From positions 1 to 40,736 of the forward strand of contig RBNJ01000118.1 of NCBI GenBank assembly GCA_003990765.1: 40,736 bases of DNA, written 5' to 3'. Position numbers and translations under genes: made by a program. A model generated the notes under the pieces. That model saw only the letters and a list, made by a program, of their open reading frames with translations. It had not been told where the DNA came from and did not search any database. How positions within the stretch are numbered: position 1 is the stretch's first letter; each line of letters begins with the position of its first letter. Source of the stretch: Jimgerdemannia flammicorona (Eukaryota). This document shows positions 1,556-39,767 of this stretch, piece after piece.

Positions 1556-2126
1556 ATATGATTGCTATTTATAAAGCTATATTATATTGGAGAATTAGAT
1601 TCAGATACTATAATTAAATATCTATTCCTCTAATTCATATTCCTAATTTGAATCAACTATCATAACTTCTTTCTAAATAAGTGATTTATTTCTAAAAGTA
1701 TCCTATTCATTTGAACTCCCAAGCTTCTACAATTTATATCTCTTTATACTATATAACTTGCATCATTATATACTTTCAATAATATCTCTTAATATATCAA
1801 AAGACTTTTGAGACTTTTCTATAAAAATGGGCTAGAGCTGGCTCATTATCTTTGAATAACTTATTAACTTATTTGGCAATTGTGATCTGAGTATGAGAGA
1901 GCTAGCACTCTCTAATCTAGTCTTCTATTCTCATCTCTGACTGTGAATTTAGTAGCTATCTCAACTTGAGTATATTTGAAACTCAGTTCTATTCTGATAG
2001 ATATTAAAGTACAAGATTTACAATAAGTGTATTTTTTATTTCCCATCCTTTCTCCAGTAACTTTCAGATTATACAATCTTCTAACAATACTCACAATATA
2101 GTTTTTAGACAAACAATACTAGTAAC

Positions 2127-4099
2127 ATAGTAAGTGACAAGTATTTCAAAGTGTATACTGGGCAGAGTGGTCCAAGTATATTTAATTAGTAGCATCTAGG
2201 GAGAGGCTTGGGCTTGGAGGGAAGTATGAGAGGCTTGCTAGTGGGTGGATAAAGAAGAAGAGAGAGCAGTATTAGAGAGTAGAGAATCAGAAGAGCAAGC
2301 TTTGCAGATAAGGTAAAGGAGAGATAGCTGGCAACTAAACTGGAGGGCTGGCTGAGAAAGAGCAAGGAAACAGTAAAGAATGTGGAGCAGTAGTAGCTGG
2401 GGGGAGCCTTACTAGAAAACCAGAGTAGGGGGGCTGGCAGTATAGTGACTGAGAGAGTGACTGCTGATGAGAGTGTAATAGGCAATCTGGAAAAAATCTA
2501 GATGAGACTGCTGATAGTAGACTAAGTTATAGGACAAGTATGAGGCCTAGTGATCTGACTGATAATGTAATGAGACTGGCAGCAGCCCCATTACTCAAGA
2601 AGTCAATTTCAGAGTTTGCAGTCACTTGGTGCTTCTGGGGCTTAGTGGAGATAGCAAAAATAGTCTTGGGGCTAATCACAAAGCAGATGAGTAGCATGGT
2701 ATCTGTTAAGTTTCTAAGAGGCCTAGAAGAGATGAAGGTAGGCATTGAGGAGACTGGGCCATTAGTGTGTGTCCCAATAGCATACTGCCTAAGATGGGAT
2801 CTCAGAGCAGTACAGCTCTTAGTGAAAAGAGTTCCTATGGTGACTGTAGTAAAGATAAGGAGGAGAGTAGAGAAAGTCATGGCTGAGTATAGGGAGGTGA
2901 TCAATATTAGATTCAGGGTGTGGGAAGGAATCTCCTTCTAGGCAGAAAATGGTGATATCCAGATTCAGTTGGTAAAAAGGAAGACTACTGGGAAGGCTCA
3001 GAACTGGCCTTCAGTGATAGTGTGGGGAGCCTTTATATATAAGGTGATGAGAGTGAAGAGGAGTGAGGAGGAGGAAGAGGACTTGTTGAAGATACTAAAG
3101 GAGTTGAGTAGTATAGTAGAGTGGAGGGTAAAGGCTTGGAAGGTATTTGGGGAGTCAAGATGCCTAAAGAAGATAGATAGAAAGTGGGTCTATGTCAATA
3201 AGGGGCTGAGAGAGATCCCAAGAAGAATGTAGGAGATAGAGAGAGTTGCTGGCAAAAATTGAGAAAGAGGCAAAGAGGAATGCTGGTAATAGTGAAGATA
3301 CTGGAGGTACCAAAGTGAGTATCTGGATCAGTGGAAGTAAAGGGAATGAGAAGGTGGATTGAGAGGAGACCAGGAAGATACTGAACAAACACCTGTATGA
3401 GGATGGTACTTTTGAAGTCTGGGAGGATATACCTCCCCCTCTTATCAGGTGGAGACCAGTTGCAAGAAGCCAGGTGATGGAGGATATACCAATGCATAGT
3501 ATCCAGAAAGTGCACTTCAGAGTTCCTAATATAGCAAAGGGGGGACTGATAGTGGTAGCTAGTGAAGAGAAATTGGTAGATGTCCTGGAGGGGGAGTGAG
3601 ATAAGTCTGTAAGTGCAGGGACCAATACCATGCTGGATAGAGGAAGACCAGAAACTCCAGAGAGGAAAGAGGTAGAGAACTTACTATGGATGTGCTGGAT
3701 AAAGAACAACTTAGTGGCTAAAGAGTTGGGGGAAGTGGACCTTAGAGTGATGAGTGATGAGCATTATATACAGATTCTATGAGGCAATGGAGTGATGGCA
3801 ACAATGAAGGTGGAAATATTTATAGTATACTGGAGAAGAAAGAGTATGAGGTAGATAATGAGAGAGAGGCCAAGCTGGCAGTTGTTGCTAGTGAGTGGAC
3901 CTCCTACTGTTAGACTAAGTGTCATAGATTGAATTTCTGGCAGGAGGTCTGCCAGAGTATCATAAATATTTTGAGAAAAAGGAGGATGGGGAGATGACTG
4001 AGTTATAGGTGAGATTAGAGGCTAAGAGGGCTGAAGAGGAGGAGGTGTCTGTGGATCACAATCTAAATATGGCACAGAAGATATTAAATATAAAGTAGT
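2127..4099 (+). pseudogene. A2 ORF1 (gag-like) remnant
   Basis: Start codon appears mutated to ATA (2127). SFADKV and PLLKKSISEFAVTWCFWGLV are shared with A3/A4. Many stops. Confidence 0.8.
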
Positions 4100-4132
4100 A
4101 GAGAATATACTTGATATTATACAATTTTTGTT

Positions 4133-7100
4133 ATAAATAGTATAACCAATATTGTTTCATTAAATGTGAATAGGCTATGGGGGTCTTTTTAGCAAAAGAA
4201 TATTTTCATTTAGCTGAAGAAATTGGAGACTGATCTCTTTCTTTTGTAGGATGTCAGATGGGAGGATAATTTAGATAGGCTGGAATAGACAAAGGAATAT
4301 TGAGGTAAGATAGTTTGGAAGGGTAAGATTGGAATTCTGGTTTGGAGAGATAGAGGGGAGATATGTAATATGAGGAGCTGAGGAGACAGATTTATTTCAA
4401 GAGAGTGGATATCAATAGGTTGAAAGCTGGTTACAGTGGATTCCTGCTCTTGTCCTACTGTATAGAGAGAGTATATAGATTGGATGAAGGGTATCCAGGA
4501 GGTGGGGCCCTTGCAGAGACTAGAGTGGATACATATGCTTGGTGGGGACTTCAATATGGTCAGGAATATACTGGTAGATAGAACTGATAGTGGGCAGGGG
4601 GCTGAGGGTAGGAGTGGAGGGCTGGAGGTATAGGAGGACATAGAAAAAATAAGTGCTCTGATGAATGGTAGCAGGGAGTTCTGGGATAATAGAGGGTATA
4701 CACAATTGGGTAGGTGGCCTTGGGATGAGGGTTGACTGGATTTTAATAGTGAGCTACTGGGGTTTGGAGGTTTGGAAGTCACTAGAGAAAGAGTGATATC
4801 TATAATCAAATCAATATAGGCTATTAGAGCAGAATCATTTTAGTGGAAGTGGAGATAAGTCTGGATATTGGTGCCTCAATTTCTCTTTATTAGATGACAA
4901 GCTGTTGTGGGATAAGTAGGCCAAGGATATTCAGCAGAAGGTGGAGGGCTGGATATAGAAAGGTATCTCAATTGGTACTCATGGATGAGGATAAAAGAGA
5001 CTGCTAGAGCCTACTAGTGTGAGGCTGGCAAGATGGCTAGTAGACAGAGAAGGAGAAGAGTAAGATGGACTTCTGCTAGACTGACTAGACTTCTGAAAGA
5101 TTGACTGGGTCTGGTGGTACAGGAGGGGGGGGAGGACTGGAGATTAACATGGTGAAAATAGGATTGGGGAATTATAACATGTGTTGTAAGAAGAGGAGAA
5201 GGCACAGGTGTAGAGTTTGGTGGTACAGCTACGTTAGCAGGGGCTGGAGGAAGGAGAGAGGCCTTCTAAGTATCTCACAAGGGCCCTTTGGACAAGGAGA
5301 GTAAAGCAGAGGTGAGAGGGGGTATTAGATTCTGATGGTCTGCTAATATATAGTATATAAGACATTCTCAGATCATTAAAGAAGAGATGGAGTGGATTAT
5401 AGAGTAAGAAGAAAGATGGGGCTGATACTGTCATTATTGATAATACTTTAGAAAATTGATACCGATCACAAGCAGAAGGGCTGGGTGGATTGGTATATCA
5501 GTATAGAAAGAGGACATTAATCAGATTCTTATCACAACTATGCTGGGCACAGCACCAGGGAAAGATGGTCTGCTCTGGGACTTCTGGAAGAAGATGGTGA
5601 GAGTTTCTGAGGTACTGGGAGAGCTGATGATACTGTTTAACTTAATACTACAGTCAGGGAGAGGGTTGGAGAGCAGGACCTAGAGTTAGTGTTACTGCTT
5701 TATTAGAATAAAAGAAGGAGGGAGGACTGGAAGAACTGTCAGCCAATTATGCTGCTGGATATGGACAGAAAGTTGGTTACTAAGATAGTGGTTACATGGT
5801 TGCAGAAGGTGGTCTAGTAAGTTTTAGGTATATAGCAGAGGGATAGGAGACTAACTTATTAGAAATGGCATGGCTTAGTATATAGTATTATTGAAGGAGT
5901 AAGAACCTGTGGACTGGATGGGTAACTGGTCTTTCTAGATCAGAAGAAGGTATATGACCAGGTTTGGCAGGTCTGATTAATAAAGGTATTGGATAGGATT
6001 GGTGAACCATACCAGTTTCAGTTAGTAATGATCAGTCTACTAGAAGAGAGTAGGACAACACTCATATGTAATAGACATAGAGGGGTTACATTCTCCCTAA
6101 GTAGAGGTATGTCTCAGAGAGATCTACTGTCTCCCATTATGTATGCTCTTTCTCTAGAGTCTTGGATAGGAAGGATTAGATGAAAGATAGTCAGACTCTT
6201 AGTTTTTGGAATTGGGTGAAAAGTTGGAGCCTTTGCAGACAATATAATAGTTGGCCTGAGATCAATTACTAATGTTGAGGAGCTCAGAGAGACAGTGGAG
6301 TAGTATGAGGTGCACTCTGGAGCTAGGCTCAATTGGTACAAGTGTGAAATAATAGTATTAAGCAATAGTCAGGTTGGAGGGAATATCATTGGAACAATTG
6401 TCCCTAGTATAAGCAGAGAGTTACAATCTGAGGGGAGGCCCAGCAGAGTTGGAGAGGACACCACTTATCTCTAGTAGTGCATATTTTGATTATAAACATC
6501 TCCTACTGTCAAAGCTATGATATTTGGCCTATTATCTAGACTTCTTAGTCTGAGTGGAGAATAGACTAATGAAATTGGCCAAAAGGTAGATCTGGGCTAG
6601 GAGAAGGAGTCAGATCAGCTGGGAGGTCTTGTCTTTATTAGTAGTAGAGTGGGCCTTGGGCTGGTTGATTTTCAAAGAGGCTATACTATCTGAGAGCATG
6701 GTGGCTGAAGAGAGTGATGGAGTTGAGAGAGAATAGCTAGGTTCCCCTGATACAAAAAGTCTGGAAGGTGAAGTTCTCACCAAAAGGCTCTACAGGAGAT
6801 CTATTGTTCTTGGTTGGGCTTTAGAACAATGAACTCATGCAGTATAAAGGCTTCATAGTAGATGGGATGTACTATATTGAAATTTGCTAACAGAGAAATA
6901 AAGGGAAGATGCCTTGAGATCTAGTAATATGGAGATGAGATTGAGTGTTTTTGGAGAGCATCCCCTTAGTTGATTTCATTAATAGTGATGGAATTGAGTT
7001 CCAGAGAGAGCCAGGACAGAATGTATGGCTCAGCAGATAGTAGCTAACAGATATTGAAGAAGAGTGAGATGGGAACAGAGTTTGGACCTGAGTGCTGAGA

Positions 7101-7620
7101 TAAGGTAGTAGATACCACTGAAGTATTGAGTGGTCTGGTTGTACATACTGCTGAGGAATATCATACTCAACTTCTGCTTAGGATATCTTATTAAGGGGAG
7201 AAGATTCAACTGTGAGGAGTGCTATAATATAGGACAGAAAGAGTAATTTGTGCAGATATCAGAACATTGGCTAGGAGATTATGAGGAACTTAGTAACTTT
7301 TGTTTAGTAGTTGGAGATAAATTATATATTATATATAGGGGGATAGTATATGGGATCAGTGGGTGGATTTGAGAGAAAGATTATTGTGAGGGGTGAGAAA
7401 GGAGTGGCTTACTTTAGGTTGAGTATTGATAGTTTGGGCAGAATTAGTAGGTCACTGGTTATTTGTTTTTGAGGAAGGAAGGAGCATGAGTTTGGGGTTA
7501 TAGCTGTTAAGATAGCAAGAGCTAATGGAGGACATTATGATGGGCTGGTAGCTTGGTTGAAGTTTGCAGGATGGCTGAAGACATCACTTGATGGAGAAAA
7601 CCTATAGGCAGAGTATAGGG
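4133..7620 (+). pseudogene. A2 ORF2 (APE endonuclease + reverse transcriptase + zinc knuckle) remnant
   Basis: (M)NSITNIVSLNVNRL from 4133, TTT GCA GAC AAT (FADN) at 6232-6243, CEEC...EHWLG near 7210-7280. Many stops and frameshifts. Confidence 0.88.
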
Positions 7621-8091
7621 AGAGTTAGAGTTAGGCTTCAAGTAAGAGTTTGTTTATAGTAAATAAGATAAGATATATTGGAGCAATAAATAGCAAAAAC
7701 TTCTAAGATAAGAAAAGGAAAAGTAGTCCAGGCTATTGTGAGACAAGAATACCTTAGCTAGGCTAGAATATAAAAAGCAAAAAGAGGCCAGTGAAGTAAA
7801 CAACTAGCTAAGAAAATCAAACAAAGACCATAGAGGTGACTACTCTATAGATGGGCTAAATAAATCATTTTGTTATAGCTGTAAAGAAAATAAATACAAA
7901 AGCAAAAAAAAAGAAAAGCTAAGATAGAATATTCAAATACCCAGCACCAACTATAGAAATAATATTGACACCTAAATGCCAAATAACTAACATGAGATAT
8001 ACATATAACTCAATGGGCACTCAACAATAAGGAAACCAATCAAGGTGAATAAGGAGAGAGAAAGAAATAAAGAAAATATATGATCACTCAA

Positions 8092-11000
8092 TTACTCAAG
8101 TATCTTCATAATCTCAGTTAAACAAAACCCAACTATAAGGTGGCCATCAGAATTATATATAGCATCAATAGTGTGGTAGGCTGTCTCATGATGAGCATGA
8201 AGAGGGTAGGTGTGAAGTTCTTCCTACCATTCATTATTAATAAACCAATTGAGCTATTCATTATGATCAGAATTATCTTAGAAAGTAGAATATAAACTAT
8301 TAAGAAGACTATACCTAAGGAGATAGTCATGATGAAACTTATCTTTACGGAGGCAGAAGAGCAAAATTGGCCAAAGTAGCCTTAATGCCAGGTAAGTACA
8401 GAATACACAAGCTGGGGGAGGAAGGTGAGGACATGATCAGCTCTTCTTGCCCATAAATAGCCTTTAGGAGTAATATACCAAATGAGGGCCTGAGAGGAGG
8501 AGGCCCATTTCTGCAATAGTAGGTTTCAGAGAAATAACTAGAGGAAGGAGCAGAGTAAGTGAGTCTTGCAGATCTAGAGACAGAGGTCTCAGTACCAGTT
8601 GAGGAAGTCAAGCCAATGCCAGAACTTATCAATAATAGAACCTGGAAGATATGTGACAAAGTACTTACTAAGAGGGCTGATGGAGTTGTTGCCAGACTTG
8701 CTATACCAATTTAGATAGACTTATAACATATAGTAGAGGTCCAACATACAATAAAGGAAGGAAGAGAGACCAAGAATCAAACTACCAAGCAGAGGCTGGC
8801 TAGAAAATCCAATTGCCCAAGTGACAGTATTATCAGTGACCTTCTCAGAATACTTCAATATATAAAGCTCCATAGTAGTAGCTGGACAGAAAGCTTATAG
8901 AAGTAGAAGGCCATACTCCAGCTGAGGCCTAATGAAGATATATATAATAGTCAGCTTAACTATTGGAGACCAGAGGGGACCATAGGTATGGCAGAACTCA
9001 AGAGTTCATTCTGTCTTTACTACATTCTGCACTGTAAGATTAACAAAGTCAAATCCTTTATTAATATATGGTATGCCCAGATATATTTAGGAGAGTGGTC
9101 AGGCAGGGCTCTCTCCTAATCAGGACAGTACAGTCAGCAGAGCCAACATAACTACACTTCTTGGGGTTGAGTTTCATACTATTCACTGAGAGCCAATCCT
9201 CACAAAAGTCAATCATTCTCTGTCCTTTTGCAGCAGTGTGGGGGGTGAGAGCAATATTGTCAGTAAAGAAAAACCCAAAAGAAAAGTCATACTCCATAAA
9301 CTACTCATCAAAGGAGGTGGTAAGGGGGTCAATGAATATATCAAAGAGGCAAAGAGAGAGGAGAGAGCTCTGGAAGAGACTATGCTCAGTGGGGACTAAG
9401 GGGTGACAAGGCTATTAACAATCATCTGATAGAAACAATGGTTAAACAGACTTTAGATAATACTAAGGAGAGCTGCATCAGCTCCTTGCACCTTAAGTTA
9501 GAAAAGAATAAGCTTGAGGAGGACTCTAACATATGTCTGCTAGAGGTCAAGAAAGACATGGCAGCCTCATCTCTTAGCTAATATCTTATATGAGAGCAAA
9601 ATATAGGAAAGTGACAAGAAGTGGGTTTGGAAGCTAGCTTGACAGTAAGACATTTCAGTCAGACTACTTCAGCTCTTGATATAATCTTCCAAGCACTACT
9701 CAAAGAGTCTACAAAATATCTTTATAAGTGTGATCTGATGAAACCTATCAATTGTCCAGGATTTCTCCTAATTGGAGAATGTGGAAATAATGGTAGAGTT
9801 CTAGTTGTAGGGAGTGAGCCCCCAGACCATGGCTTTCGACAGACTATGGAGAGTATCCTTCTTACCTGCCATCACCCAAAGGATCCCAACATATAAGAAG
9901 TCAGCTCTACAGGCCTTTGTGAGGGGGTACCTATAGATGGCCCTCTAAACTGCAGGCTGGTCAAACCAGAACTGCAGCCCAAGAGCTCCTACATCAAGAG
10001 AGAAGATGTCCTCAGAGTCATTAAGATGCAAGGAAGCCTTCAGCTAGCAGAAGATAGTGGTAAAATGAGCAATCATATCATCAAATATAGAGAAGTAAAA
10101 TTGAAAGAGAGTGGGGGAGATAGAGCAGTATACTCACTTAAAGCCATGGATGATATTGGAGATCAGCAATGTACTGTAAAGGAGGTCCTGCCATAGTAGT
10201 GGTGCTGCCCTGATTTCTCTAGCATTATATGAGCCCAGAATGTCCTCACAGACAGACTATAGACCAGAGGTCAAAAGGGAGTCAAGGAAATCCACAAACT
10301 ACTGGTAATCTTCCATAGGGTAAAAGCCAGTGATGTGGTCCCAGATGGAATATATGGACCTGACAATGATATTACAAATGATATCTACTAATTTCCAAAG
10401 ATGAGCTTGAATGACCAGATTGGTCAGATAATTTGCAGAGTAATAGTAGATACTAGACAAAGTAGTAACCAGTAAGGGAGAGAAGGAGAAGGAGAGAGTA
10501 AGAAGAGAGGGGTGGTTGGTGGCAACAGTGGTGGTATAGCAGGTGAGGGATACATGAAGGGATACAGTGATAAATACATGATCAATGTATATAAGACCGG
10601 CCACTGGAGTCAGGTGGTTTAATAACTACATAATCAGAGAGATATCAACAATATCCATTTTATTCCAAGGACTAGAGTTGATGTTATCAAGATAGATACT
10701 AAAGTAGATATTAATGTTACTGATCAAAAGAGCCTTAGTCAGGAAGGGACCAGATATAAGATTACAGAATCCACTAATAGGAAGAGAGGGGGGGACATAT
10801 ATCCTAAGTAAAGCCAGACCCTGAAACATGAGTTGGATATGGAAGAGATCAGTAGAAGATCTAAAAATAAGTAGTACCAAATAATTTAACATAAGGACTA
10901 TGAGACTACTATTCTGGTGACTTACAATTCTGTATAATGCTAGAAGAGAAGACGTATGAATGAGCAGAGAGGGATATAGTAGAATATGTCATATTCTATA

Positions 11001-11096
11001 TATGAAAAGAACATCAAGTGCAGGACAAATCAACTGACTGAGTATATTGAACTTATCCTGAGTTAGTCTATATACATTGAGAAACCTGACTCTCAT
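8092..11096 (-). pseudogene. B1 ORF2: APE + RT + C-terminal CxC..H..C knuckle, about 1000 codons
   Basis: Starts MRVRFLNVY (compare B3 VGFLNIHGL), then IYVPPS, YIDHVF, FFTDNIAL, MKLNPKKC; ends KILE-stop at 8092-8094. Confidence 0.85.
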
Positions 11097-12585
11097 TGTG
11101 GGCCAGGCATACTAGCACTAACAGCATGAGAAGCACCTGAGGAGAAAGTCTCAACTTTCAAATCCATCACCATCTCCCCTGTCATAGTAATAGTACCACC
11201 TGTCTTTGACCAATAGGGGGGTAAGAGAGGAGAAGTGAGGCCAAGTTCTACAGCCCATATCTTATAGAAGTTCAGCAACTCAGACCTCTTTACAGTAGCA
11301 TTGATAGCTAACCACTGGACCTGAGCATAGAATGATTAGAGGACCTATACCTTCACAACCTCTATGGCATTCTTGTTTCAGGGGAGTATAGGGTCCTAGG
11401 CTGAGAGCATCAAGAACCTGAGTACCTTCATCTTCTTTTGGAATACCATGATATTATTAGAGTGCAAAAGAAATTTAATAGTTAATACCAAAATGTATGA
11501 CATATTAAAGACCTTGGACAATATCACATAGATATTGTATAAGTTCTTCTAGATTGTCTCAATCTTAAGATGAGGAAATCAATCAATATAAATATACTGC
11601 AACCAGACACCTCTCTTAGATGGTGATAAATGAGAGGTTAGCTTGTGGGTTATATATAAAATTACTATAATAATGGCAGCTCTTTCCATCTCAGAATAAG
11701 CCTAGGTCCTATCCTTGATAAAAACCTTCTTATCAGTAGTGATATATAATTTAGAGAAGGTGAGAGTCAAAGCATGAGATGAAGATTGAGCAGTGGTACT
11801 GAGTCCCATAGGTGTAGCCTGAGATACTGATACAGGGGCCTTGCTTTTGCCCTTTTTAGAGAGTGCAGCTTTACTGGCCAAAGGTGCTGCTGTGAGAGTT
11901 ATCTCCTTTGATAGTATACCAGACTGTGATACAGTAGCTTTAGCAGCCTACTTATCTATTTAATTCTAGGCTTTAGATTACATATTTGTGGCAGGACTAG
12001 TAAGAGGGAGGGCTGAAGACTTGGGGGGAGTAGATATAGATAGGACAGTGGGGGTACTTTCCAAAGGAGTACTAGATGATATAGGAGTAGTGGGTACCAA
12101 TTATACAGTGAGTCATACTATTAGCTGAGTACTAATCTTAGCCAAATTGGTCACTTAAGTCAGCAGATCTGAGATCTGCTTCCTCATTATGGCTATCTTC
12201 ATAACCACATCAGAGTCAGCTGAGGGGACTATAGGATCAATAGTCAGATTCATTCCCAAACTAATATTTAGATAGCTATACTTATTCTGATTAATAGATA
12301 TAGGTATGGAAGAGAATATCAGACACTGGATATCATGGTCTAAATCAGAAGAGATTGTGATCTCTTCATCATCTTCTGTATCATGCAGAGAAGATAAATA
12401 TACCAATATTAGTCATATGTATATCTCCATATAATCTGCACATCACCATAAGATTATCCTTACTGAAGTTGAGGGAAAGGAGACCAATATCATAACATTT
12501 AGCTTAGTGGAGAGAATCACTGAAGTATATGAAGAGGTGGGTGGTATTTGAGTTATTGCTAATAATGGAAGAGGTGGCTGATATT
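11093..12585 (-). pseudogene. B1 ORF1 remnant
   Basis: Collinear with B3 ORF1: acidic DTEDDEEI segment, coiled-coil-like RKQISDLLT, Pro/Thr/Ser linker, ends PGPQ-stop. Start position approximate. Confidence 0.7.
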
Positions 12586-15582
12586 GCCAAATTAGATAAA
12601 GGTAGGTTTGTTTATTTGTTTGAAATTATAAAATATTAGTCATATGACCTTTGTTTGTTTAATAAAAAAATAATAAAGAAGGGGGTATTTATATCCAATG
12701 AGAGGCTTAGCTAATCAAAGTGACTGCTTTCTTAATTTGGAATAGCTTGGGGTCATAAAGCTAAATCTAGTCAAATAGATATGTTGTGTAAGTGGCTGAG
12801 GTTAGAGTTAGGCTTTAAGTAAGGATTTATTCATTATAGAGGAGATAAGATATAGCAGAGTAACAAATAGCAAAGACTCCTAAGATAAGAAAAGGAAAAA
12901 CAGTCCAGGCTATTATGAGATAAGGATTGCTTAGCTAGGCCAGAATGTAAAAAGCAATAAGAGGCCAGTAAAGTAACCAACTAGCTAAGAAGTACAAAAG
13001 AAAGGTCATAGAGGTGATCACCCTATAGATAAACTAGATAAACCATTTTGTCATAGTCATAAAGATAATAAATGTAAAAAGCAAAGAAGAGAGAAGCTAA
13101 GATAAGATATAGAAATACTTAGCACCAACTATGAGAATAATATTAACACCCAAATACCAAATGACTAATATGAGATATATAACTCAATGTACTCTCAATA
13201 ACAAGGAAATCAATTGAGATAAATAAGAGAAAAGCAAGAAATAAAGAAAATATACAATTGCTCAATTACTTAAGTATCTTCATAATTTCAGTCAGATAAA
13301 ACCCAACTATAAGATAGATACTAGAACTATACATATTATTAATAGTATAGTAGGCTGTCCCATAAAGAGCATAAAGAGAGTAGGCATGAAGTTCTGCCTG
13401 CTATTTATTACTGATAAATCAATTAAGCTATCTATCATAATTAGAATTATCTTGAAAAGTAGAATATGAGCATCAAGAAGACTGAACCTATAAAGATGGT
13501 CATGATAAAACTTATCTCTATAGTGGCAGAGGTAAGATTGGCCAAAGTAGCCATAATACCAGAAAGAGCAGAATGTACAAGCCACAATAGAAAGAAGAGG
13601 ACATGATTGATCCCTCTAGACCATAAGCAGCCTTTGGGGGTAATGTACCAAAAGAGTGTCTGGGAAGAAGAGGCCTATTCCTGAAGCAGCTGGTCCTAAA
13701 GAAATGACTAGAAAAAGAAGCAGAGTGAGTGAGTCTTATAGACCTGGAGATAGAGGTCTCAGTACTAGTCAAGGAAGTCAAGCCAGAAAGTCTAATGCTG
13801 AGACTTGTCAATAATAGAACTCAGGGGATGTATGATAAAGCACTTGCTAAGGAGGCTGATGAAGTTGTTACCAGAATTGCTACATCAGTCCAGATGGGCT
13901 TAGAACATATAGTAGAGGTCTGATATATAATGAAAGATAAAGGAGAGGCTAAGAATTGAACTATTAAGTAGAGGTCAGCCAGAAAACCCAACTGCCCAAG
14001 CAATAGCATCATCAAAGACCTGGTTGGGATTCTTTAACACCTGAAGCCCCATAGTAGTAGCCAGATAGGAAGCTCATAGAAGTGAAAGACTGTACTTCAG
14101 CTAAGGCCTAATGAATATTCATATAATGGCCAGCTTAACTTTTAGTAACCAGAGAGGACTATAGGCATAGCAGAACTAAGAGTTCATTCTGCCTTTACTA
14201 TATTCTACAATACTAAACTGATAAGTCAAATCCTTTGTTGGTATATAGTACATATGTCTAGGTATATAGAAGGGGGGTTGTGAACAGGGATTGCCTCTAA
14301 TTAGTATAGTAGAGACAGCAGGGCTGAGATAACTACACTTCTTATGATTGAGCTCTATACCATTTACTATGAGTCAATTTTCATAGAGGTAAATCATCCT
14401 CTATCTCTTTGCAACAGTATAGGAAGTGAGAGCAATATCATTAGCAAAGAAAAGCCCAAGGGAGAAGTTACACTCCTTAAATTGATCATCAAAAGAGGAG
14501 ACAAGAGAGTCAATGAACATATCAAAGAGCTAAGGAGAGAAGAGGGAGTCCTGAAAGAGGCCACACTCAGTGGAGACCAGAGGGATAATAAGGCTATTAA
14601 CAACTATCTAATAAGAACAGTGATTGAAAAGACTTCTGATGATGCTGAGAAGAGCTGCATCAGTAATGTCTTAAGCCAGGAAAGGATGGGCCTGAGGAGG
14701 ACTCTATCATATGCCTGCTAGAGGTCTAGAAAGATATGATGGCTCTACCTCTTGGCCCACATCTCATACAAAAGCAAGACATAAGAAAGAGATAAGAAGT
14801 GGGTTCAGAAGTCTTCTTGGTAGTATGACATTTCTGTTAGGCCACTTCAGCTCTTCCTATAATCTTCCAAATACTACTCAGAGAGTTGGTGAAATATCTC
14901 AGTAAGAGCAATAGAGTGAAACTCATCAATCATCTATAACTTCTCCTTCCTTGAAGTCAGAGAGATAATAACAGAGTTCCAGCAGTTAAGAGTGAGTATA
15001 TACAACTGAAAGAAAAGAGACATGGCTTTCAAAAGACTATAGAGAGCATTCTTCTTTCCAACCATCACCAAAAGGATTCAGACATATAAGAAGTCAGCCC
15101 TATAGGCCTTTGTGAGAGGATAGCTATAAATAGCCCTCCAAACTACAGACTGGTCAAACTAAGACTGCAGTCCAAGAGCCCTAACACCAAAGGGGAAGAT
15201 ATCCTCAGAGTCATCAAGATATATATAAGAAAGTATTCAGTTGACTGAAGATAGTGGTGAAATGAGCAACTATATTATCAAATACAGAGATAGTAGAGGA
15301 GTAGAATTGGAGAAGAGTGAGAGAAGTGGAGTAGTATACTTGCTTAAAATTATAGATAGCATCAGAGGCTAACAATACATTATTAAGGAGGTCCTGCTGT
15401 GTGAGCAGTACTGCCACAATTTCACTTGCATACATGAGCCCAGAATGTCCTCACAGATAGACTGTAGACCAGAGATCAAAAGAGAGTCATGAGATTGCCA
15501 CATCTTTCACTGGTAACATTTGGGTGATACAAAACTCAGACAACACTTTTCACTATGTTTTTGGTGTCTGATAACTATCAAC

Positions 15583-17493
15583 ATAGATGGCAATGATCAA
15601 ACTGGTGAGCATACTGACCAGGAGGGTGGCAGTGCCTTTGGCTGGCAGCAGGTGGGAAGGAGGGGAGATGGTTTGGAGATGCCAGGGACCTCAATGGCTA
15701 GCCGAGGCCCTAGTGGGGGAGGGAGGGGTGGTCTGAGGCAGAGAGGAGGAGAGAGGTCGACCTTTGCTGATAAGGTCAGAATGGGGAAGATGGCCTCTGG
15801 TCTGGATGGTTGGCTGGGCCTGGGGAAGGCATCGACAGCTACTGCTGGGGGACAGAGAGGTGTGCCCAGGGGAGTTTCAGATGGTAGGAGAGGAGCAGGA
15901 GTAGGGGCAGAAGATGTGACTGTTGATGGGGCTGTAACTGGGGATTTGGCAAAAAATCCAGATGTGACAGTGGTTGACAATTCAGGATAGGGAGTGGGTA
16001 TGAGGCCTGGGGACCTGGCAGATGGAGTGACAGGCATGGTATCAGCCCCATTACTCAAGAAGTCGAGGTTGGAATTTATGGTCACAATGTGTTTCTGGGG
16101 CTTGGTGGTGATGGCAAGGATGATTTTGAGGCTGATGGCACAGGAGGCAAAGGGAGCAGTGTCAGTGAAGTTTTTGAAGAGGAAGGAAGGGGTTGAGGTG
16201 GGGTTCAAGGAGGAAGATGCATTGCTGGCAGCTTTGGAGAAAGGGGTGACAGTTGGTGGGGTTGTGGTCCCTATGGCTAGGTACATGTGCTGAGACCCCT
16301 GAGTGGTGCAGTTGATGGTGTTGGATCTCTCTATGGTGTCAAAGGAGAGGACCAGAGAGTTGGTTGAGGAGGTGATCAAGGAGTATGGCGAGATTGTGGA
16401 TGTTGGGTTCAGGGTCTGGGAGGGTATGGAGCTTCGGACTATTGACGTCAATGTCAGAGTGAGGCTGGCCAGAAAGGAGAATACAGAGAAGTCAAGGGAC
16501 TGGCCAGCAATATTGAGGTAGGGACAGGTGGAGTGCAAGGTCATGAGGGTGAAGGGGATCCAGGAGGAGGAGGAAGACCTGTTGGAGGCTCTGGAGGATC
16601 TGAAAGGGGTGGTTGTGAGGAGGAGATTGGCCTGGAAGGAGTTTGAAGCCAGGACAGTGGTGGGGGAGGTGGATGGGAAGAGGGTCTGGATGGAGAGGGG
16701 GGCCTGGGAGAAGATGCAGGGGAGGAAAATTCAGAAAGAGCTGCTGGCGAAGTTGGGTGGGGGTGGTGCTAGTGGAGGCTCAGGAGAGGGGGTTGTGGGA
16801 TTGCAGGAGAGCACCTGGGCTGAGGGGGGTGAAAGGGCCTGGGGTGGGGCTCGGATTGGAGTGAAGGAGGAGAGGGAAGGCAATATGGAGGCAGATGTGG
16901 AAATGAGTGACAGTGTGCGCCCTCAGTATAGTGTCCCAGGTGGAGTGGAGGGGGAGGAGGAGCTGCTGGATGTGCCGGATGAGGAGTGGGATGAGTCAGT
17001 AAGAGGGAGCATGCTGGTGGACCCTGAGGTGGATGGGGGCCAAATTGCTCAGGGTGTAGTAGAGGTGGTGGATAAGGAGAAGTAGATGTGGAAGACCCTG
17101 GAAGGGGTAGTAGCAGAAGAGCTGGGGGGAGAGGATTTCAGGGTTATGGAAGAGAGGCATTGGGAGGAGATCCTACAGGGGGAGGAGGTGCCAAGGAAGA
17201 TGAAGAATGAGATCCTGGCTATTCTCCTGGAGTTGGTGGAATATCAAGTTGATGATCAGAGAGAAGAGAAGCTTAGGAGGATTGTGAGTGACAGGGCATT
17301 ATATTTGTGGAACTCAAGGAAGGGACTGAAGAAGTGGCATGCTGTCGACTATCAGTCAGAGATGGCGATAGTGGACAGAGTGGAATGTCAGGAAATCTTG
17401 GAGGCACTAGATGCTCAGGCTAATGCAGAGGGTGACTTAGAAGCTGAACAGTGCTTGTATCTGACTGGGGATGAGATGAGCATGAAATACTAG
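15583..17493 (+). pseudogene. A3 ORF1 remnant
   Basis: ORF-track pieces 15520-15990, 15994-16293, 16303-16521, 16528-17085 and 17086-17493 are in one frame, separated by in-frame stops. Confidence 0.85.
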
Positions 17494-17523
17494 GCTGGGG
17501 TTGCTATTGCAATATTCTTCAAT

Positions 17524-20500
17524 ATGAATAGTACAACTAGGATATTCTCTTTGAACATAAATGGGTTGCAGGGGGCAGCTAGGAGGCAGAATATATTAGG
17601 ATAGCTTAAGGGACTGGATGTGGATCTCTTCTTGTTGCAGGATGTTCATTATGAGGCAGATGTGGATTTACAGGATTGGACTAAGGAATGGGGGGGGGCA
17701 GCAGTATAGAGGGGGAAGGTGGGTATTCTCATGTAGAAAGGGATGGAGGACATTGGGGACATTGGACATTGGGGGTCTCAGGTGGTGTAGGGAGTGTGAA
17801 AGAGACCTGGATGGGGCTTGCTGACAGTGGGGTCTTGCTACTGCCCAGCTGAGAGAGGGGAGAGGGTGGATTGGATTCACAGGTTGAAAGAGGGTGGTGT
17901 TTTGGGAGAGGTTGGGTTGGACTACATGGGGTGTGATTTCAACATGATATGGGATAAGGAGAGGGATAGAACTGATGGAGGGAGAGACATGTAGGGTGAA
18001 AGTTGTGGGTTGAGTGACTGGTTGGAGACAGAGAGGTTGAGATCTTTAGTGGACTCAGGAAGACAGTTCTAGGGCAATTGGAGGGTGTACACTCACTGGG
18101 TGGCAGGGCTGGGCTCCAGGATTGACTGGGTTTTGACAGTGGAGTGTTGGGGAGCAGATGTCTAGATGGTGCTGGCAGTAGTCTGGTGTCTGTGGTCTGA
18201 TCACTGGGGGCTGCTTGGAGGGGGGAGGTTTGGGGGAAGAGAGGATAGGCCTGGACATTGGTGGCTAAATTCTTCCTTGTTGGAGGATAGGGCTTTGTGG
18301 GAGGGTTGGGAAACAGAGGTTGTGAGGAATGTCTGAAGGTGGTGGGAACAGGGCCTGGAGATTGGAGACCACTGGAGGAGACTGAAGGTGAATGCTCAGG
18401 GATATTGGAAGGAGGCAGGGAAAGGAAGGTGTGTTCAGCAGTGGCGGCAGGTGCTGTGGGCCTCACGGCATCTGGCAGCACTCATGGGGAGATGGGCAGG
18501 TGTGCTAGAGGATAGGGAGGTGACTAATTGGCATAATGTGTGAATCCGAAAGGAGGTGGAGGAGCTTCAAGGAGTGTTACAAAGAGAGGAAGAGGTGAGA
18601 CTGCAGGGGATAGTGGCCTGACTGCGGTGGCAGAGGCTTGAGGAGGGGGAGAGGCCTACTAGGTTTTTGACATAGTTGTTACAAGTATGACGAATGAAGC
18701 AGCAGTGGGAGGGAGTTCTGGATGCGAATAGTGAGCTGGTAGTGGGGACTCTGGCAATTCTGGGCTTACTGAGGACCCACTGGGAGAATCTGTGGAGTGA
18801 GGAGGAAGGAGGAGTGGATGCCTTAGACATTGAAAGGCAGCTGGGGGATTGGCACCCAAACTCTGTGATAGGCCTCAGGGCCTTGGGGGACCTAGTGAGT
18901 GGAGAGGAAATTTGCAAGGTTGTGGCCTTGGTGAGTAAGGGGACAGCTCTGAGAGAGGATGGACTTCCCTGGGATTTCTGGAAGAAGATGACTGGGGTGG
19001 GAGAGGTGTCAGAGGAAATGACTGCTATGTGTAATGAGGTTCTTCAGTCTGGTGCTTGGATTGGGGGCCAGCACCTAGGGCTAGTCTCCTTGCTCTATAA
19101 GAATAAGGGGAGACAGGAAGATCAGAAGACCTGGCAGCTGATCATGCTACTTGACATGGACTGCAAACTGGTGACAAAGATCTTGGTGATGAGGCTGTAA
19201 GGAATTGCTCAGCAGGTGCTTGGGGTAGAGCAGCGTGGGTTTGTCGGTGGCTGGTTGATTCATGATAGGACAGCTTGGGTACATAGAGTGATTGAAGGTG
19301 CCCAGGCTATAGGGGTGGATGGCTGGTTGGTATTTCTGGATCAAGAGAAGGCATATGATAGAGTGTGGAGGATTTGGCTGGAGGGAGTACTGAAACAGAT
19401 TGGTATCCCCCTGGGATTCTGAAGATCATTGATCAGCCTTTTGGAGGACAGTCAGGCAGTATTGGTCATTAATGGCCACAGGGGGGTGACCTTTTCCCTG
19501 GGGCACAGGGTGCCGCAGGGAGACCCCTTGTCACCCATATTGTATGCCCTCTCCTTAGAGCCCCTACTGAACAAGATTCGGCATCAGATTGGGGGTTTGG
19601 ACATTTTAGGGATTCATTGGAAGATGGGAGCCTTTGCTGATGATATAGTGGTCGGGCTGGGCTCCTTGATGGATATGGGGGAGTTACAGAGGTTGGTGGA
19701 ATAGTATGAGGGGGGTTCTGGTGCTAAACTAAACTGGTACAAATGTGAGACTTTGGTGCTAGGTGCTGGAATCATTGGGGGTGATGTTATTGAGATAGTG
19801 GTACTGGCTAGTAAACCAGTGCATTATTTAGAGATCTACTTCTCAGTGTTCAGATCTCTTCTTTCCCGTGTATGGTGGAATCGACAACTCCTGAAGTTGG
19901 GAAATGTTCTGCTGTGATGGGGAGGTCAGCATATGTCCCTAGCCAGAAGGGTGATGGTGCTGAATGTGTATTGGATGCTGAAGCTGTGGTATGAGAGATA
20001 TTATTTGAATTTCCCACCCTGGGTGGTCAGGGGGCTGTTGAAGATGGCGAGGTCATGGATCTGGGGAGGGAAGTGAAGCCAAGTGGGTTGGGAGGTACTC
20101 ATACTGCCTGTGGAAAGAGGTGGGCTGGGCTTAGTTGACTTTACTAAGCAGCTTCACTGCTTGAGAGCTTGGTGGTTGAGGAGGGTGAGTGAGCTGAGGG
20201 GCCAGGAGTGGGTGCCAGTCATGCAGAGGGTGTAGGAGGCTCAGTATTCCCCTCATAGTGACTCTGGTGACCTGCTTGTGATGGTGGCCATGGATGGGAG
20301 CAGGAAGATGAGGTTTACAGGCTTCTGGGGGGGAGTGGTGGATGGTGCTAAGGAAATTGGACTCCAGTGGTGGGGTGATGAAGCCGAGGAGGATTGGGGA
20401 CCACAGATGTGGTGGTGGGACAGACTTCTACTGGGTGGTGTTCTGGTGGAGGATTTTCAGCTTGGCGAGGGTGTGGAGTGTCTGCAGGGATTGGGTGGAG

Positions 20501-21211
20501 ACCTGTGGCCTGAAGCCTGGCAAAGGGTTGGAATTGGTGAGAAGTGGGATTGGAATGGTCTCAGCTTTGGAGCAAAAGGGTGAGACAGTGGCTGCCCCCC
20601 AAGTTTGGGTGGTGTGGTGGCAAGTACTATGGCAGAATGTGATGTTGAACTATCAGTCTGGGCATTTGGTGGATAGTGGAGTATTTGAGTGCGAGGAATG
20701 TTTCAATGTTGATCAGGAGGGAAGAGCAGTACAAATACCTGAACATTGGCTTGGCAAGTGCGAGGTTCTGGAGAAGTTTTTGAAATGTATTGGGGACTAT
20801 TTAGGGCTGTGTGCCTTAGAGAGAGGGAAAGGGGGGAGATGGGGAGATCTCTGCTGGAGACTGGTGGGTGGGGTTGGGGATGAATGGCTGACTCTTGGTT
20901 GGGCTCTGGCCATGTAGATTGGATTGGCTGGACATTGGGTTTATGTATTTGAGGACGGATAGTGGGTTGGGGTTGGGGCCAAGGTAGTACATTGGAAATG
21001 GTTATTATTGGACATTTTGAATGGTTGGTGGCAAGGGTGGGGACTGGGTGGGGGGAATCACAGAGGTTTGGTACAGTACTTCTCCTGGAAGAGTGATGGG
21101 AGGATTTAGGTAGTGGGTGACTGGGTGGTGTTTGGGCAGAAGAGAGTTGAGGGGGGAGAGTTGGGTCCATGGGGCATTGGTTGAGAGTTTGGGGTGATAT
21201 TGTATTTTTAG
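17524..21211 (+). pseudogene. A3 ORF2 (APE + RT + zinc knuckle) remnant
   Basis: MNSTTRIFSLNINGL, LLQDVH, CDFN, SDH, EEGERPTRFL, FLDQEKAYDRV, PQGDPLSP, FADD (19633-19644), CEEC-x14-H-x4-C. Confidence 0.93.
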
Positions 21212-21546
21212 AATTATAGATGGTAGTAATAAAGGGCAGTCTAAGGGACTAAAAAAAAAAAAAAAAAAAAATCAAAAGAGAGTCAAGGGAATCCACAATC
21301 TGCTAGTTATCTTCCACAGAGTAAAAGCCAGTGATTTGGTTCCAGATAGAATAGATGGATCTAACAATAGTATCATAACTGATATTTACTAATTCCTGAA
21401 GGTAGGCTTGAATAATCAGATCTATCAGATATTTTTCAAAATAGTGGCAGATATCAGCCTAGATAGCAATCAGCAAGAGAGAGAAGAGATAGGAGACAGT
21501 AAAGAGGGAGGAATGGTTAGTGGCAACAGTGGGGATAAAGTAGGAA

Positions 21547-21794
21547 AGAGGTCTAATATACAATGAAGAAATAAAGAGAGGCCAAGAATCAAACTGCCAA
21601 ACAAGGACTAGTCAGAAAATCTGATTGCCCAAGTAACAGTATTATCAAAGACCTGCTTAGGATACTTCAATATCTGAAGCCTCATAGTAGTTTCTGGACA
21701 GAAGGTTAGTAGAAGAGAAAGGTCATACTTCAGCTGAGGTCTATTAAAGGTACATATAATGGCCAACTTGATTATTGACAACCAGAGGGGACCC
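21547..21794 (-). mobile_element. Isolated internal fragment of family B (post-RT region)
   Basis: Collinear with B1 ~8735-8982 (translates LSIIKLAIICTFNRPQLKY). Joined to B2 at AGAGG. Confidence 0.8.
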
Positions 21795-22586
21795 CTTGGA
21801 GGGGGTAGAGATGGGTTTTGAGAAGGTGGGTTCACTGGAGGAGGCTTTGAAAACTGGTATAGCTGTAGGAGAGATAGTGATCTCTATAGTATAGTGTTTG
21901 AGGTAGGACACTAGAGTGGTTCAGTTGCTAGTGAGGGGGGTACTTATGGTGATAGTGGCTAAGAATAGAGGAGGTGATGACAGAGTATAGTGATATGTTT
22001 GATATCAGCTTCTATGTATAGGTGGGGACTACTTTCAGGACAAAGAAAATTGATGTCAGGATTAGACTAGTAGAGAGATAGGCTATGGGGAAGATGAGTG
22101 ACTGATCTTTAGTAATAATATGGAGAGTTTTTATCTGTAAGGTGTTGAGGGTGAAAGGGTATAAGGAGGAGGAGAAGGACTTGTTTGAGATGCTGAAGAA
22201 GTTGAGTAGAGCAGTAGAGAGAAGAGTGAAGGTCTGAAAGATATATATAGAGTTGACACATCTGGAGATTATAGATGGAAAATATATTTGTACTAATAAG
22301 AGATAGTGAGAGAGAGCTCAAGAGTACAGAAAGCAGAAGGAGCCACTGAAAAGCATAGAAGAAGTTGTGAAGAAGAATATTAGAGGCACTGAGAAGTTTG
22401 AGGGCATAGAAGTGAGTGTCTGGACTAGTAAGAGAGGAGGAGATATAGAGAAGGGCCTGGATGGAGCAAAGAAGGTACTACTCAAGAACCCATTTGCTAA
22501 TAGTATATTCAAAGTCTGAGAGTCAGTCTTAAAAGATACTCCCCCTCTGGTCTGGTGGGGTCTAGCAGCAAGGGGTAGGGCAGCAG
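21795..22586 (+). mobile_element. Isolated internal fragment of family A ORF1 (A5)
   Basis: Collinear with A4 ~31085-31890, for example AAGAACCCATTTGCT and CCCCCTCTG. Neither terminus is present. Confidence 0.8.
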
Positions 22587-22994
22587 AGGGTTAGGGTTAG
22601 GCTTCAAGTAAGGGTTAATTCATTGTAGAGAAGATAAGATATATCAGAGCAACAAACAGTAAAGACTCCTAAGATGAGAAAAGCAAAACAAGGTCAGTGA
22701 AGTAAACAACTAGATAAGAAGTACAAAACAAAGATCAGAGAGGTGACCACTCTATGGACAGGCTGGATAAAAACCATTTTGTCATAGCTGTAAAGATAAA
22801 AGATGCAAAAAGCAAAGAAAGGGGAAGCTAAGATAAATAGACAACTACCTGGCACTAACTACAGGAATAATATTGACACCCAAACACCAAATAACTGACA
22901 TGAGATATATAACTCAATATGCTCTCAATAATAAGGGAACCAACCAAGGTGAGTGAGGGGAAAGAAAGAAGTAAAAAAACTTGTGATTGCTTGA

Positions 22995-25148
22995 TCACTC
23001 AAGCATCTTTGTAATCTCAGTCAGATAGAACCTAATGACAAGGTGGTCACCAGAATTATGCATTGTATCAATAGCATAGTAGGCTATCATATGAAGAGCA
23101 TGAAGTGGGTAGGCATGAAGTTCTTCCTGCCATTCATCACTGATAAACTAATCAAGTTGTTCATTATGATCAGAAATACCTTGGAATGCAGAATAGGAGC
23201 CATTGAGAAGACCATATCTGAGAAGATGGCTATGATGAAACTTATCTCCCAGAAGTAAGAGCAAGGTTGGCCAAAGTAGCCATAGTGCCAGGGTGAGAGC
23301 AATATCATAAGCAAAGAAGAGCCCAAGGGGAAAGTCATACTCCTTAGAGATGGCAAGGGGGTTGATAAAGACATCAAAGAGCCAGAAAGAGAGGAGGGAG
23401 CCTTAGAAGAGGCCATGCTCAGTGGGGACTAAAGGGGTGATGAGGCCATTAACATCTACCTGATAGAAACAGTGATTGAACAGACTTTGGATAATGCTAA
23501 GGAGGGCTACATCAGTATCTCACACCTCAAGTCAGGAGAGAATGAGCTTGAGGGGAACTCTATTATTGTCAAGAATAACATAACAGCCCCACCTCTTAGT
23601 CCACATCTTGTATGAGAGCAAGACATCAGAGAGAGATCAGAAGTGGGTTCAGAAGCCACCTTGGCAGTGTGACATTTCTGTCAGGCCACTTAAGCTTTTG
23701 ATATAAACTTCCAAACACTTCTCAAAGAGTCTACGAAACATTTTGGTAAGAGCAATAGGGCAAAATCCATCAATTATCTGAGATTCCTCCTTCTTGGGAA
23801 CTGGGATAATAATGGTAGAATTCCAGTGGTAGGGAGTAAGCCCCCAGACCACACATATCTGAAAGAAGAAGGACAGGGCTTTGGACATGCTATAGAGAGC
23901 ATTCTTCTTTCCTACCATCTCCCAAAGAATCTGAACATGCAAGAGTCAGCCCCACAGGCCTTTAAGAGGGGGTAGCTGTGGATAGCCCTCCAGACTGCAG
24001 ATTGGTTAAATCAAAACTGCAGTACAAGAGCACCTATGCTGAGAGGGAAGACATCCTCAGAGTCATCAAGACAGCGAGAGGCGTTTGGTTGGCTGAAGAT
24101 AGTGGTAAAGTGAGCAACCACATTGTTAAAAACTGAGATAGTTGGGGAGCAAGATTGGAGGGGGGTGAGGGGGGTGGAGTGGTATACATGCTTGAAATCA
24201 CAAATGGCATTAAAGACTGAAGATGTACTATGAAGAAGGTCCCACCAGGGGAGTGGCACCACTCTAATTTCTCTTGCATCATATGAGCCAAGAATGTCCT
24301 CACAAACTGACTGTAGACCTGAGGTCGAAAGGGCATTGAGAGAATCAACAAATTGTTGGTGATCTTCCATAGAATGAAAGCCAGCAATATGGTTTCAAAC
24401 AGAGTGATGGACCTGACAATAGTATCACAAATGATATCTGCTAATTTCTGGAGGTGAGCTTGAACAACTAGATCAGTCAGGTATTTCACAGAGTAACACT
24501 GAATGCCAGTCAAGACAGCAACCAGTGAGGGGGAGAAAGGAAAGGAGATAGTAAGGAGAGAGGAGTAGTCAGTAGTGATAGGAGGAGTGGTATATATGAA
24601 GGATACATAGAGGGATATAGTGGTGAATGCATGGTCAACACATGTATATCCAGCCACCAGAGTTAGTTAGTTCGATGACCACATCATCAGAGAGGTATTG
24701 ATGATATCCATCCAGTCCCTAGGAGCAGAGTTGATATCACCAAGGTGAGCACCAAAGTAGATATTGATGTTACTGATCAAAAGAGCCTTACCTGGGAAAG
24801 GGCCAGATATAAGATCCTGAAAACCACTAATGGGAAGAGAGGGGGGGACATAAACCCCAATCAAAGCCAAGCTCTGGAACATGAGCTGGATATGGAAGGA
24901 GTTGGCAGAGGACTCGGAAATGAGTAGGGCAAAACAGTTTGACACAAGGACCATGAGACCACTATTTTGGTAACCCACAATCCTATATAATGCTAGAGGA
25001 GAGGACATGTGAATGAGTGGAGAGGGATGTAGTGGAATATGCTATATTTCACATATAAAAAGAGCATCAAGGGCACGACCAATCAACTGACTGAGCATAT
25101 CAAACTTGTCCTGAGTTAGTCCATGTATATTGAGGAATCCGACCTCAT
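22995..25148 (-). pseudogene. B3 ORF2 remnant with internal deletion
   Basis: ORF-track pieces 24667-25008, 24034-24657 and 23649-23942 carry APE and RT motifs. Confidence 0.85.
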
Positions 25149-26645: not shown

Positions 26646-26859
26646 TGCCAAAATAAGTATAGGTGTATTTGTTTGATTTTTTTAAGAAATTGTGAAATGC
26701 TAGTTATATGACCTTTATTTATACAATAAAAAAATAATGAGGAAGGGGAGTATTTATACTGATGGGAGGCTTAGCAAATCAAAGTGACTGCTTCTTAATT
26801 TGGAATAGCTTCAGGCCATAAAGCCAAGTCTAGCCAAAAGGAGAAATCATGTGAGTGGC

Positions 26860-39766: not shown

Positions 39767-39767
<1 letters not shown>

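Follow-up and report, generated by a model that had tools for sequence, protein, structure and literature searches.

A head-to-tail row of decayed, apparently L1-like retrotransposons joined through telomere-like tails in Jimgerdemannia flammicorona

How do copies of one retrotransposon come to lie head to tail, the 5' end of one joined directly to the tail of the next? The question is raised by a 40,736-nt stretch of DNA from the early-diverging fungus Jimgerdemannia flammicorona (contig RBNJ01000118.1, assembly GCA_003990765.1; hereafter the window), in which one repeated element, here named B, occurs as five copies (B1 to B5) and one fragment (Bf), all in the same, minus-strand orientation. 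The takeover of a host function by mobile DNA has its classical example in the polar retrotransposon rows found at chromosome ends or close to them. Known rows have poly(A) joints, as in Drosophila, consist of endonuclease-free Penelope-like elements, as in rotifers and some fungi, or consist of long interspersed nuclear elements (LINEs) with a restriction-enzyme-like (REL) endonuclease, as in MoTeR, FoTeR and Cnl1. An earlier note on this DNA had singled out the joint between B1 and B2 as a precise head-to-tail junction formed through a telomere-like linker, and had offered sequential terminal addition, insertion into the tail of an earlier copy, or template jumping as its origin. In this study we describe the junction and the family to which it belongs, examine the relationships among neighbouring copies, and weigh the mechanisms by which such a row could have been built, among which growth unit by unit through tail-primed retrotransposition appears the probable one.

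The B1/B2 junction and the tail of the B element

The B copies were found by self-BLAST of the window, and all copies compared here lie within it. On the plus strand, B1 finishes with GTAAGTGGCT at 12788-12797, followed by GAGGTTAGAGTTAGG at 12798-12812 and then, from 12813, by CTTTAAGTAAG..., which is the antisense of the conserved B 3' end and belongs to the body of B2. The gap between the two copies is only 15 nt long, every base of it can be read as part of 2.5 degenerate TTAGGG units, and host DNA is entirely absent; the boundary at 12797/12798 and the passage through the tail of the next copy are thus as the earlier note had described them. Because weak matches to the reverse transcriptase (RT) family RVT_1 lie on the minus strand (Pfam, stops read as X; E = 5.9e-4 in B1 and 8e-6 in B4), the B elements are read as minus-sense and 12797 as the 5' end of B1. 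That this terminus is true and complete, as had been claimed, is borne out by B3, whose own 5' terminus GTGAGTGGCT (26851-26860) stops at the base homologous to 12797; here too a tail, TAGATTAGG (26861-26869), comes next, and after it another B body, that of B4.

The tail marks a real boundary of the element rather than an internal motif of a longer unit, since three of the five B tails (at 7625, 22591 and 36591) adjoin non-B DNA. A 22-nt motif comprising tail and body occurs four times at no more than three mismatches, against 0.00 occurrences expected from 100 shuffles of the window; this ungapped scan misses the fifth tail, that of B4, which carries a 1-nt deletion. Misassembly of the joint is unlikely because the B copies share only 74-82% pairwise identity in the self-BLAST and hence represent unique sequence. 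The B1/B2 junction is confirmed as real and non-random.

The design of the sense 3' end is the same in all five B copies: AATAAA or a mutated form of it, 13 nt, and then GAAG followed by CCTAAC(C/T)CTAACC, the phase of GAAG relative to CCTAAC being fixed in 5/5. The tail consists of about two C-strand telomere-like repeats and is 9-15 nt long. No poly(A) 3' tail was found in any of the five B copies or in the four relatives that show the strict tail pattern (see below), all of which end instead in about two CCCTAA units. The tail is most readily understood as belonging to the element itself and copied from its RNA, rather than as the remnant of a telomere tract, because no junction contains longer TTAGGG-like runs and two left flanks are the interiors of another LINE.

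The row as a whole (Table 1) is uniform in polarity, with all seven B or C pieces (B1-B5, Bf and C) on the minus strand. Unit C, of about 340 bp, was revealed by subtracting the insertion A3 and lies with the truncated B4 5' end on its left and the B5 tail on its right; as it has a B-like 3' design with a different 3' sequence, the row mixes at least two telomere-tailed families. Of the six tails in the window, four (B2, B4, C and B5) directly adjoin the 5' end of a further, like-oriented tailed unit, and both complete 5' ends (B1 and B3) abut a tail. The extent of 5' truncation varies, from B4 (at B1-equivalent 11044) and B5 (~8936) to unit C (~340 bp), which favours separate target-primed events, of which such variation is typical. 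Nested in the row is a second, unrelated LINE family, A, characterized by an apurinic/apyrimidinic endonuclease (APE) together with RT, by poly(A) and by target-site duplications (TSDs). Between 21545 and 22590 the sequence is scrambled, the end of B2, Bf and an internal 790-bp A fragment (A5) following one another with no tail joining any of the three.

Table 1. Features of the row in order of position; open reading frame (ORF) remnants and the flagged junction are listed beside the copies to which they belong
Feature	Coordinates	Strand	Description	Left neighbour of tail
A1	2085-7624	+	last ~170 nt and poly(A) missing; cut exactly at B1 tail start	
B1	7625-12797	-	5173 nt, full-length decayed LINE; tail 7625-7635; complete 5' terminus 12797	A1 interior
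B1 ORF remnants	ORF1 ~11914-11255; ORF2 (APE and RT) ~11099-8808	-	from tblastn of relatives; RVT_1	
B1/B2 junction	12788-12813		last 10 nt of B1 5' end (12788-12797), 15-nt B2 tail (12798-12812), first B2 body base (12813)	
B2, 3' part (tail and body)	12798-15488	-	75% identity to B1; split by A2	complete B1 5' end
A2	15489-21270	+	20-nt poly(A); nested in B2; 14-bp TSD 15475-15488 / 21271-21284	
B2, continuation past A2	21285-21545	-	stops at B1-equivalent 10543, no tail after	
Bf, internal B fragment	21547-21793	-	B1-equivalent 8735-8981; in scrambled stretch	
A5, A-type fragment	21797-22589	+	right side cut exactly at B3 tail start	
B3	22588-26860	-	complete 5' terminus 26860; tail 22588-22601; internal deletion, B1-equivalent ~8392-9243	A5 interior
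B4	26861-30325	-	9-nt tail 26861-26869 joined to B3 5' end; 5'-truncated ~30323 (B1-equivalent 11044)	complete B3 5' end
Unit C, left part	30326-30397	-	tail GGGTTAGGGT; TTAAAC, 13 nt, tail; 3' sequence unlike B	truncated B4 5' end
A3	30398-36300	+	poly(A); nested in unit C; 19-nt identical TSD 30379-30397 / 36300-36318	
Unit C, right part	36319-36590	-	ends at B5 tail	
B5	36591-37848	-	5'-truncated at B1-equivalent ~8936; tail 36591-36602	truncated C 5' end
A4	37850-39209	-	inverted, 5'-truncated A-type LINE; poly(T) abuts truncated B5 5' end	

Identity and relatives of the B element

The coding capacity of B was approached through its relatives. An alternative genetic code was considered for B and rejected, since no strand or frame is open under table 1 or table 6 and the copies are simply decayed; the differences between them are dominated by transitions, at about 4.5 to 1 over transversions. 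Read through with X at stops, the B4 RT retrieved 1378 proteins at E<=1e-3 from a representative library, the best matches being about 1000 amino acids (aa) long with the RT at about residues 430-760. Among ten scanned relatives, RVT_1 was present in all and an N-terminal Exo_endo_phos domain in four, these being the only families that Pfam found in them, with no separate search for an REL motif made. In tblastn, relatives align along B1 from aa 3-5 (11099/11096) to aa 808 (8808), as exemplified by P0003 (aa 5-760) and P0006 (up to aa 808), and they align likewise along B2, B3 and B4.

Residues N10, E36, D131, N133, D206 and H207 (numbering of the first sequence), which we take to be positions of the APE active-site motif, do not vary among the 20 relatives that were aligned. 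Compared with the PDB, the profile of these sequences found human L1 ORF2p as its best match (E = 5.7e-54, over endonuclease and RT) and also the isolated L1 endonuclease 1vyb (E = 3.7e-8), while R2 proteins match it over the RT only (E ~1e-35 to 1e-33); neither a silkworm TRAS1 nor an R1 endonuclease is among the matches listed (20 chains, E<=0.01). Upstream of ORF2 the relatives carry an ORF1 of 451-665 aa, in which no Pfam family was found (five of five ORF1s); that of one relative (L003) matches B1 at 11914-11255 (E = 2e-8) and B3. Judged from these matches, B is a complete but dead L1-like LINE of 5.17 kb, with an ORF1 followed by an ORF2 that would have encoded an N-terminal APE and an RT. 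A common family for A and B was also considered, and was rejected at the sensitivity of tblastn, an A-type protein matching no B copy in the window. Rfam recovered no family at gathering score in the window, neither a hammerhead nor any other known RNA.

A scan of metagenome contigs yielded 79 loci, the ten closest of which were examined for the tail. The strict pattern (AATAAA, 12-23 nt, and CCCTAACCCTA at <=2 substitutions) is present in four of them (L003, L004, L005 and L007), where the tail passes directly into non-telomeric DNA or the end of the contig. In L007, three tailed 3' ends stand in a row, representing strongly 5'-truncated copies in series. Furthermore, L001 (1-5583) is a circularly permuted contig whose first 123 nt are identical to its last 123 nt (100%), giving a unit of 5460 bp with ORF1 (628 aa) and ORF2 intact; because assemblers give such permuted contigs from near-identical head-to-tail copies, it probably represents a young head-to-tail array of a relative. 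Since the four tails, the L007 row and the L001 unit show the same design elsewhere, tail design and head-to-tail joining are traits of the lineage, not accidents of the B locus.

Origin of the row

A comparison of neighbouring copies by transversions alone had been proposed in the earlier note, with near-identical neighbours expected under template jumping, and segmental duplication or misassembly named as what would speak against the proposed origins. We ran it over the 1945 columns common to B1-B4. Seventeen transversion patterns unite B1 with B2 and B3 with B4, two unite B1 with B4 and B2 with B3, and none unites B1 with B3 and B2 with B4 (17/19 against one third, binomial p=6e-7); the corresponding transition splits, in the same order, show heavy parallelism (95, 52 and 65). 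Given the 17:2:0 distribution, neighbours are, on their sequences, each other's closest relatives and derive from the same source lineage. What is new here is that transversion-only splits provide a usable test, by which neighbours trace to a common source lineage and the rows are not block duplications. The near-identity of neighbours, in contrast, could not be read, because they now stand ~24% (B1/B2) and ~19% (B3/B4) apart over transitions and transversions, and their identity at birth is no longer legible.

The parallel transitions among B copies point to mutational hot spots of a deamination- or repeat-induced point mutation (RIP)-like kind. A CpA context is found in 106 of 224 inferred C>T changes, polarised by a majority rule that is unreliable with five decayed copies, and no claim of RIP is made.

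We consider it probable that the B1/B2 junction is a retrotransposition joint and that the row was built unit by unit through sequential tail-primed retrotransposition. This proposal starts from what is shown, namely how the junction is built, how the family is designed, that units abut non-randomly, that neighbours are sisters and that block duplication is rejected; to this it adds, by inference, priming through base pairing, a part for the endonuclease and a sequence of events, as follows. The primer would be a DNA 3' end whose last bases are telomere-like and of G-strand type (...GGG / TTAGGG), so that they could pair with the CCCUAA-type tail of the element RNA. Each integrated copy would deposit a fresh TTAGGG-like site of 12-16 nt at its own 3' boundary, and the next event would be primed at the deposited site or at an adjacent exposed end, so that the 5' end of one copy, whether complete or truncated, would come to lie against the tail of the next with no host DNA in between. 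The tail of B is comparable in size to the target requirement of SART1Bm, given in the available text of PMC7265360 as at least three TTAGG units, ~15 nt.

Two variants of this sequential scheme appear about equally likely. In variant (a), an endonuclease nick inside the tail of a resident copy would have primed the next one, making B1 younger than B2; in variant (b), addition to a free or broken end would have made B2 younger than B1. Variant (a) agrees with the conservation of the endonuclease, with linkers of minimal length and with the 9-nt B4 tail, if this is read as a split tail; (b) is in keeping with A1 and A5 on the opposite strand, both of which stop precisely at a B tail, the rest of neither being found to the right. 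Each variant would require one extra event, a deletion at the right edge of the row in (a) and a later acquisition of the non-array DNA at 39210-40736 in (b). All copies in the window are dead. The pooled private substitutions (241 in left against 279 in right copies, p=0.10) would, if anything, make the left copies younger. Of the origins put forward in the earlier note, sequential events are therefore favoured, with terminal addition and insertion into a tail about equally likely, and template jumping retains a small share of the probability.

Several observations weigh against this sequential reading. Between the row and the end of the window lie at least 1.5 kb of non-array DNA (39210-40736), there is no telomere tract in the window, and no junction holds anything beyond ~2.5 TTAGGG-like units; being internal and free of such a tract, the row would demand a later rearrangement under the end-addition variant. 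With linkers of only 9-15 nt, the link to chromosome ends that had been drawn for this locus likewise finds no support in the window. Plain insertion, for its part, would require an extra deletion, since A1 and A5 are cut and their remainders were not found to the right of the rows. Among the ten closest relatives, six do not show the strict tail pattern: the tail of L001 is a degenerate version recognised by eye, the sequence downstream in L002 is just 123 nt long, and no such tail was found in L006, L008, L009 or L010. Moreover, 14 of the 17 supporting transversions cluster at B1-equivalent 9785-10542, and local gene conversion between neighbours could have contributed to the split signal. 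Private substitutions do not differ significantly within pairs (B1 138 against B2 155, p=0.35; B3 103 against B4 124, p=0.18) and give no age order, equal loads being expected for a dimer formed in a single event as well. Finally, as no B copy is intact, the endonuclease and its specificity are deduced from relatives.

A different view of the rows, which we regard as doubtful, is that they are scars of repeated chromosome-end healing, in which DNA ends in ...GGG would be extended by a whole element without telomerase. The RNA tail would then imitate the product of the telomerase template; a usable end could be provided by a break within another transposon or by the preceding unit once its 5' end had eroded; and the right-hand truncation of each unit, A1 and A5 included, would record erosion before the next capping. 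If this were true, an L1-like, endonuclease-bearing counterpart of HeT-A/TART would coexist with TTAGGG telomeres in an early-diverging fungus. Template jumping within a single event is an unlikely origin, by which the RT would finish the 5' end of one B RNA and continue on the 3' end of a second, leaving B1+B2 and B3+B4 as dimers. R2 proteins do jump from full-length complementary DNA to further templates and leave head-to-tail transgene repeats in cells, according to the available text of PMC11371274, and such dimers would agree with a full-length first-copied (left) partner and a shorter second one at both B-B junctions, with the sister relation of neighbours (17:2:0) and with statistically equal private loads inside pairs. 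However, the B4/C and C/B5 joints would call for serial jumps from internal positions onto unrelated RNAs. With AATAAA placed 13 nt ahead of the tail, the RNA would be expected to be polyadenylated, but the joint is without poly(T), so that the jump would have to start inside the RNA; and the evidence for jumping of this kind concerns R2 rather than an L1-like enzyme.

If unequal crossing-over or replication slippage, acting between copies or between tails, had multiplied a single tailed copy or enlarged a short row, neighbours would likewise be expected to be sisters. That the region has been rearranged is shown by the scrambled stretch at 21545-22590, and L001 assembles as a perfect repeat unit. 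Nevertheless, B3 has its full length and B4 breaks off at B1-equivalent 11044, next to the tail of another unit, so that the two do not go back to a single insertion; for homologous exchange, tails of 9-15 nt would be a very short substrate, and the recurrence of the family trait in unrelated organisms would be left unexplained, which together render such recombination quite improbable. A segmental duplication of a ready-made B-B dimer might be suspected from the single BLAST alignment that spans both junctions (9243-15482 against 23291-29557, 73.6%). It is, like an assembly artefact, hardly credible: the grouping of B1+B3 against B2+B4 is backed by 0/19 informative transversion sites, the transversion distances B1-B3 (0.048) and B2-B4 (0.051) are among the largest of all pairs, the linkers differ in length (15 against 9 nt), and copies diverged by 20-26% are unlikely to be collapsed or mis-joined. 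Segmental duplication, which the earlier note had foreseen as a refutation, was in this way rejected by the very comparison it had proposed.

A1 is homologous to A2 and A3 up to GGGAGAG at 7618-7624, and A5 up to CAGAGG (22583-22589). The missing 3' remainder of A1 was searched for elsewhere in the window and not found, and the downstream part of A5 is likewise absent from the window. At the site that matches the cut of A1, A2 reads GGGAGGATTTAGG, a telomere-like motif. Because the 19-nt TSD of A3 is 100% identical while the surrounding B copies are at least 20% diverged, the A-type insertions seem to be much younger than the B row. A2 (5.8 kb) matches RVT_1 (1.2e-24) and Exo_endo_phos (2e-3) in the same frame (Pfam); A2 can be read over its whole length in this one frame, whose 1927 codons include 39 stops (TGA 20, TAG 16, TAA 3), and no frameshift separates the APE match from that to RT, decay having proceeded by point mutation only, and the sense strand is strongly G-rich (GC 0.52, GC skew +0.50). 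A4 has the same head-to-tail polarity as the B units. In the right flank (39210-40736), the ORF list, the only search made of it, contains no recognisable gene; a perfect 42-nt poly(A) on the plus strand at 39768-39809 is possibly the tail of another retroposed sequence. Tandem repeats of 18 bp with unlike units occupy both edges of the window, of the ACCTTGGAGGTCGGCGGA type on the right (40578-40736) and of the CTTTAATATTTGCTAAAA type on the left (1450-1556).

Comparison with telomere-associated retrotransposons

The TRAS1 and SART1 elements of Bombyx mori, which belong to the R1 clade, have poly(A) tails and are located inside long telomere tracts. B resembles them in being an APE-type LINE, in its proposed use of telomere-repeat sequence as integration site and in forming polar rows. 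It differs in that the profile of its relatives matches L1 ORF2p and the L1 endonuclease rather than the R1 clade, and in that no telomere tract flanks the copies in the window: a fixed phase of the TRAS/SART type is seen in 5/5 B copies, but the flanking repeats comprise no more than ~2.5 units and two left flanks are LINE interiors. Site-specific LINEs tailed with their target repeat, for example microsatellite-targeting elements of R1 or Tx1 type, have a 3' end that copies the target repeat instead of poly(A) and lets the RNA tail pair with the nicked target; in B, unlike these, the repeat is the telomere unit and the host an early-diverging fungus.

The HeT-A, TART and TAHRE elements of Drosophila belong to the Jockey clade. 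Like the B row, their rows run head to tail in a single polarity and contain units truncated to varying extents at the 5' end, in their case with 3' ends toward the centromere, as described in the available text of PMC10088271; unlike it, they are joined through poly(A), lack telomerase repeats and form the chromosome terminus itself. MoTeR1, FoTeR and Cnl1 are, as B, fungal non-long-terminal-repeat retrotransposons tied to telomere repeats, but their endonuclease is C-terminal and restriction-enzyme-like, grouping them with CRE/SLACS (PMC12857005, available text), while B and its relatives carry an N-terminal APE endonuclease. R2 illustrates that the RT of a retroelement can join templates end to end with head-to-tail tandem products in cells (PMC11371274, in the text available); it is, however, an REL-endonuclease element of ribosomal DNA with no sequence kinship to B beyond the RT fold, so that the analogy with R2 drawn in the earlier note is a loose one for an L1-like element with an N-terminal APE endonuclease. 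Penelope-like elements (Athena/Coprina), with their own type of RT, no endonuclease and hammerhead motifs, differ from B, in which an L1-like ORF2 with APE and no Rfam family were found.

In the titles and abstract openings listed by literature searches, which took in neither Repbase nor subscription journals and are weak evidence of absence, we found no APE-type telomere-tailed LINE of fungi. The telomere-associated retrotransposons recorded in the available text of PMC10088271 comprise SART/TRAS, GilM/GilT, Zepp, MoTeR1, Tx1-1_ACar and Athena. Tx1-1_ACar, from the vertebrate Anolis, is there reported as an L1/Tx1-type APE LINE specific to telomeres, and this Tx1-type element, compared by description only, is probably the nearest described to B. 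An L1-like, APE-bearing LINE in which two telomere units replace poly(A) would be a further, independent route to the architecture of polar rows. Such an element would re-create its own landing site at every insertion and, because each copy brings its own target, rows could form away from real telomeres.

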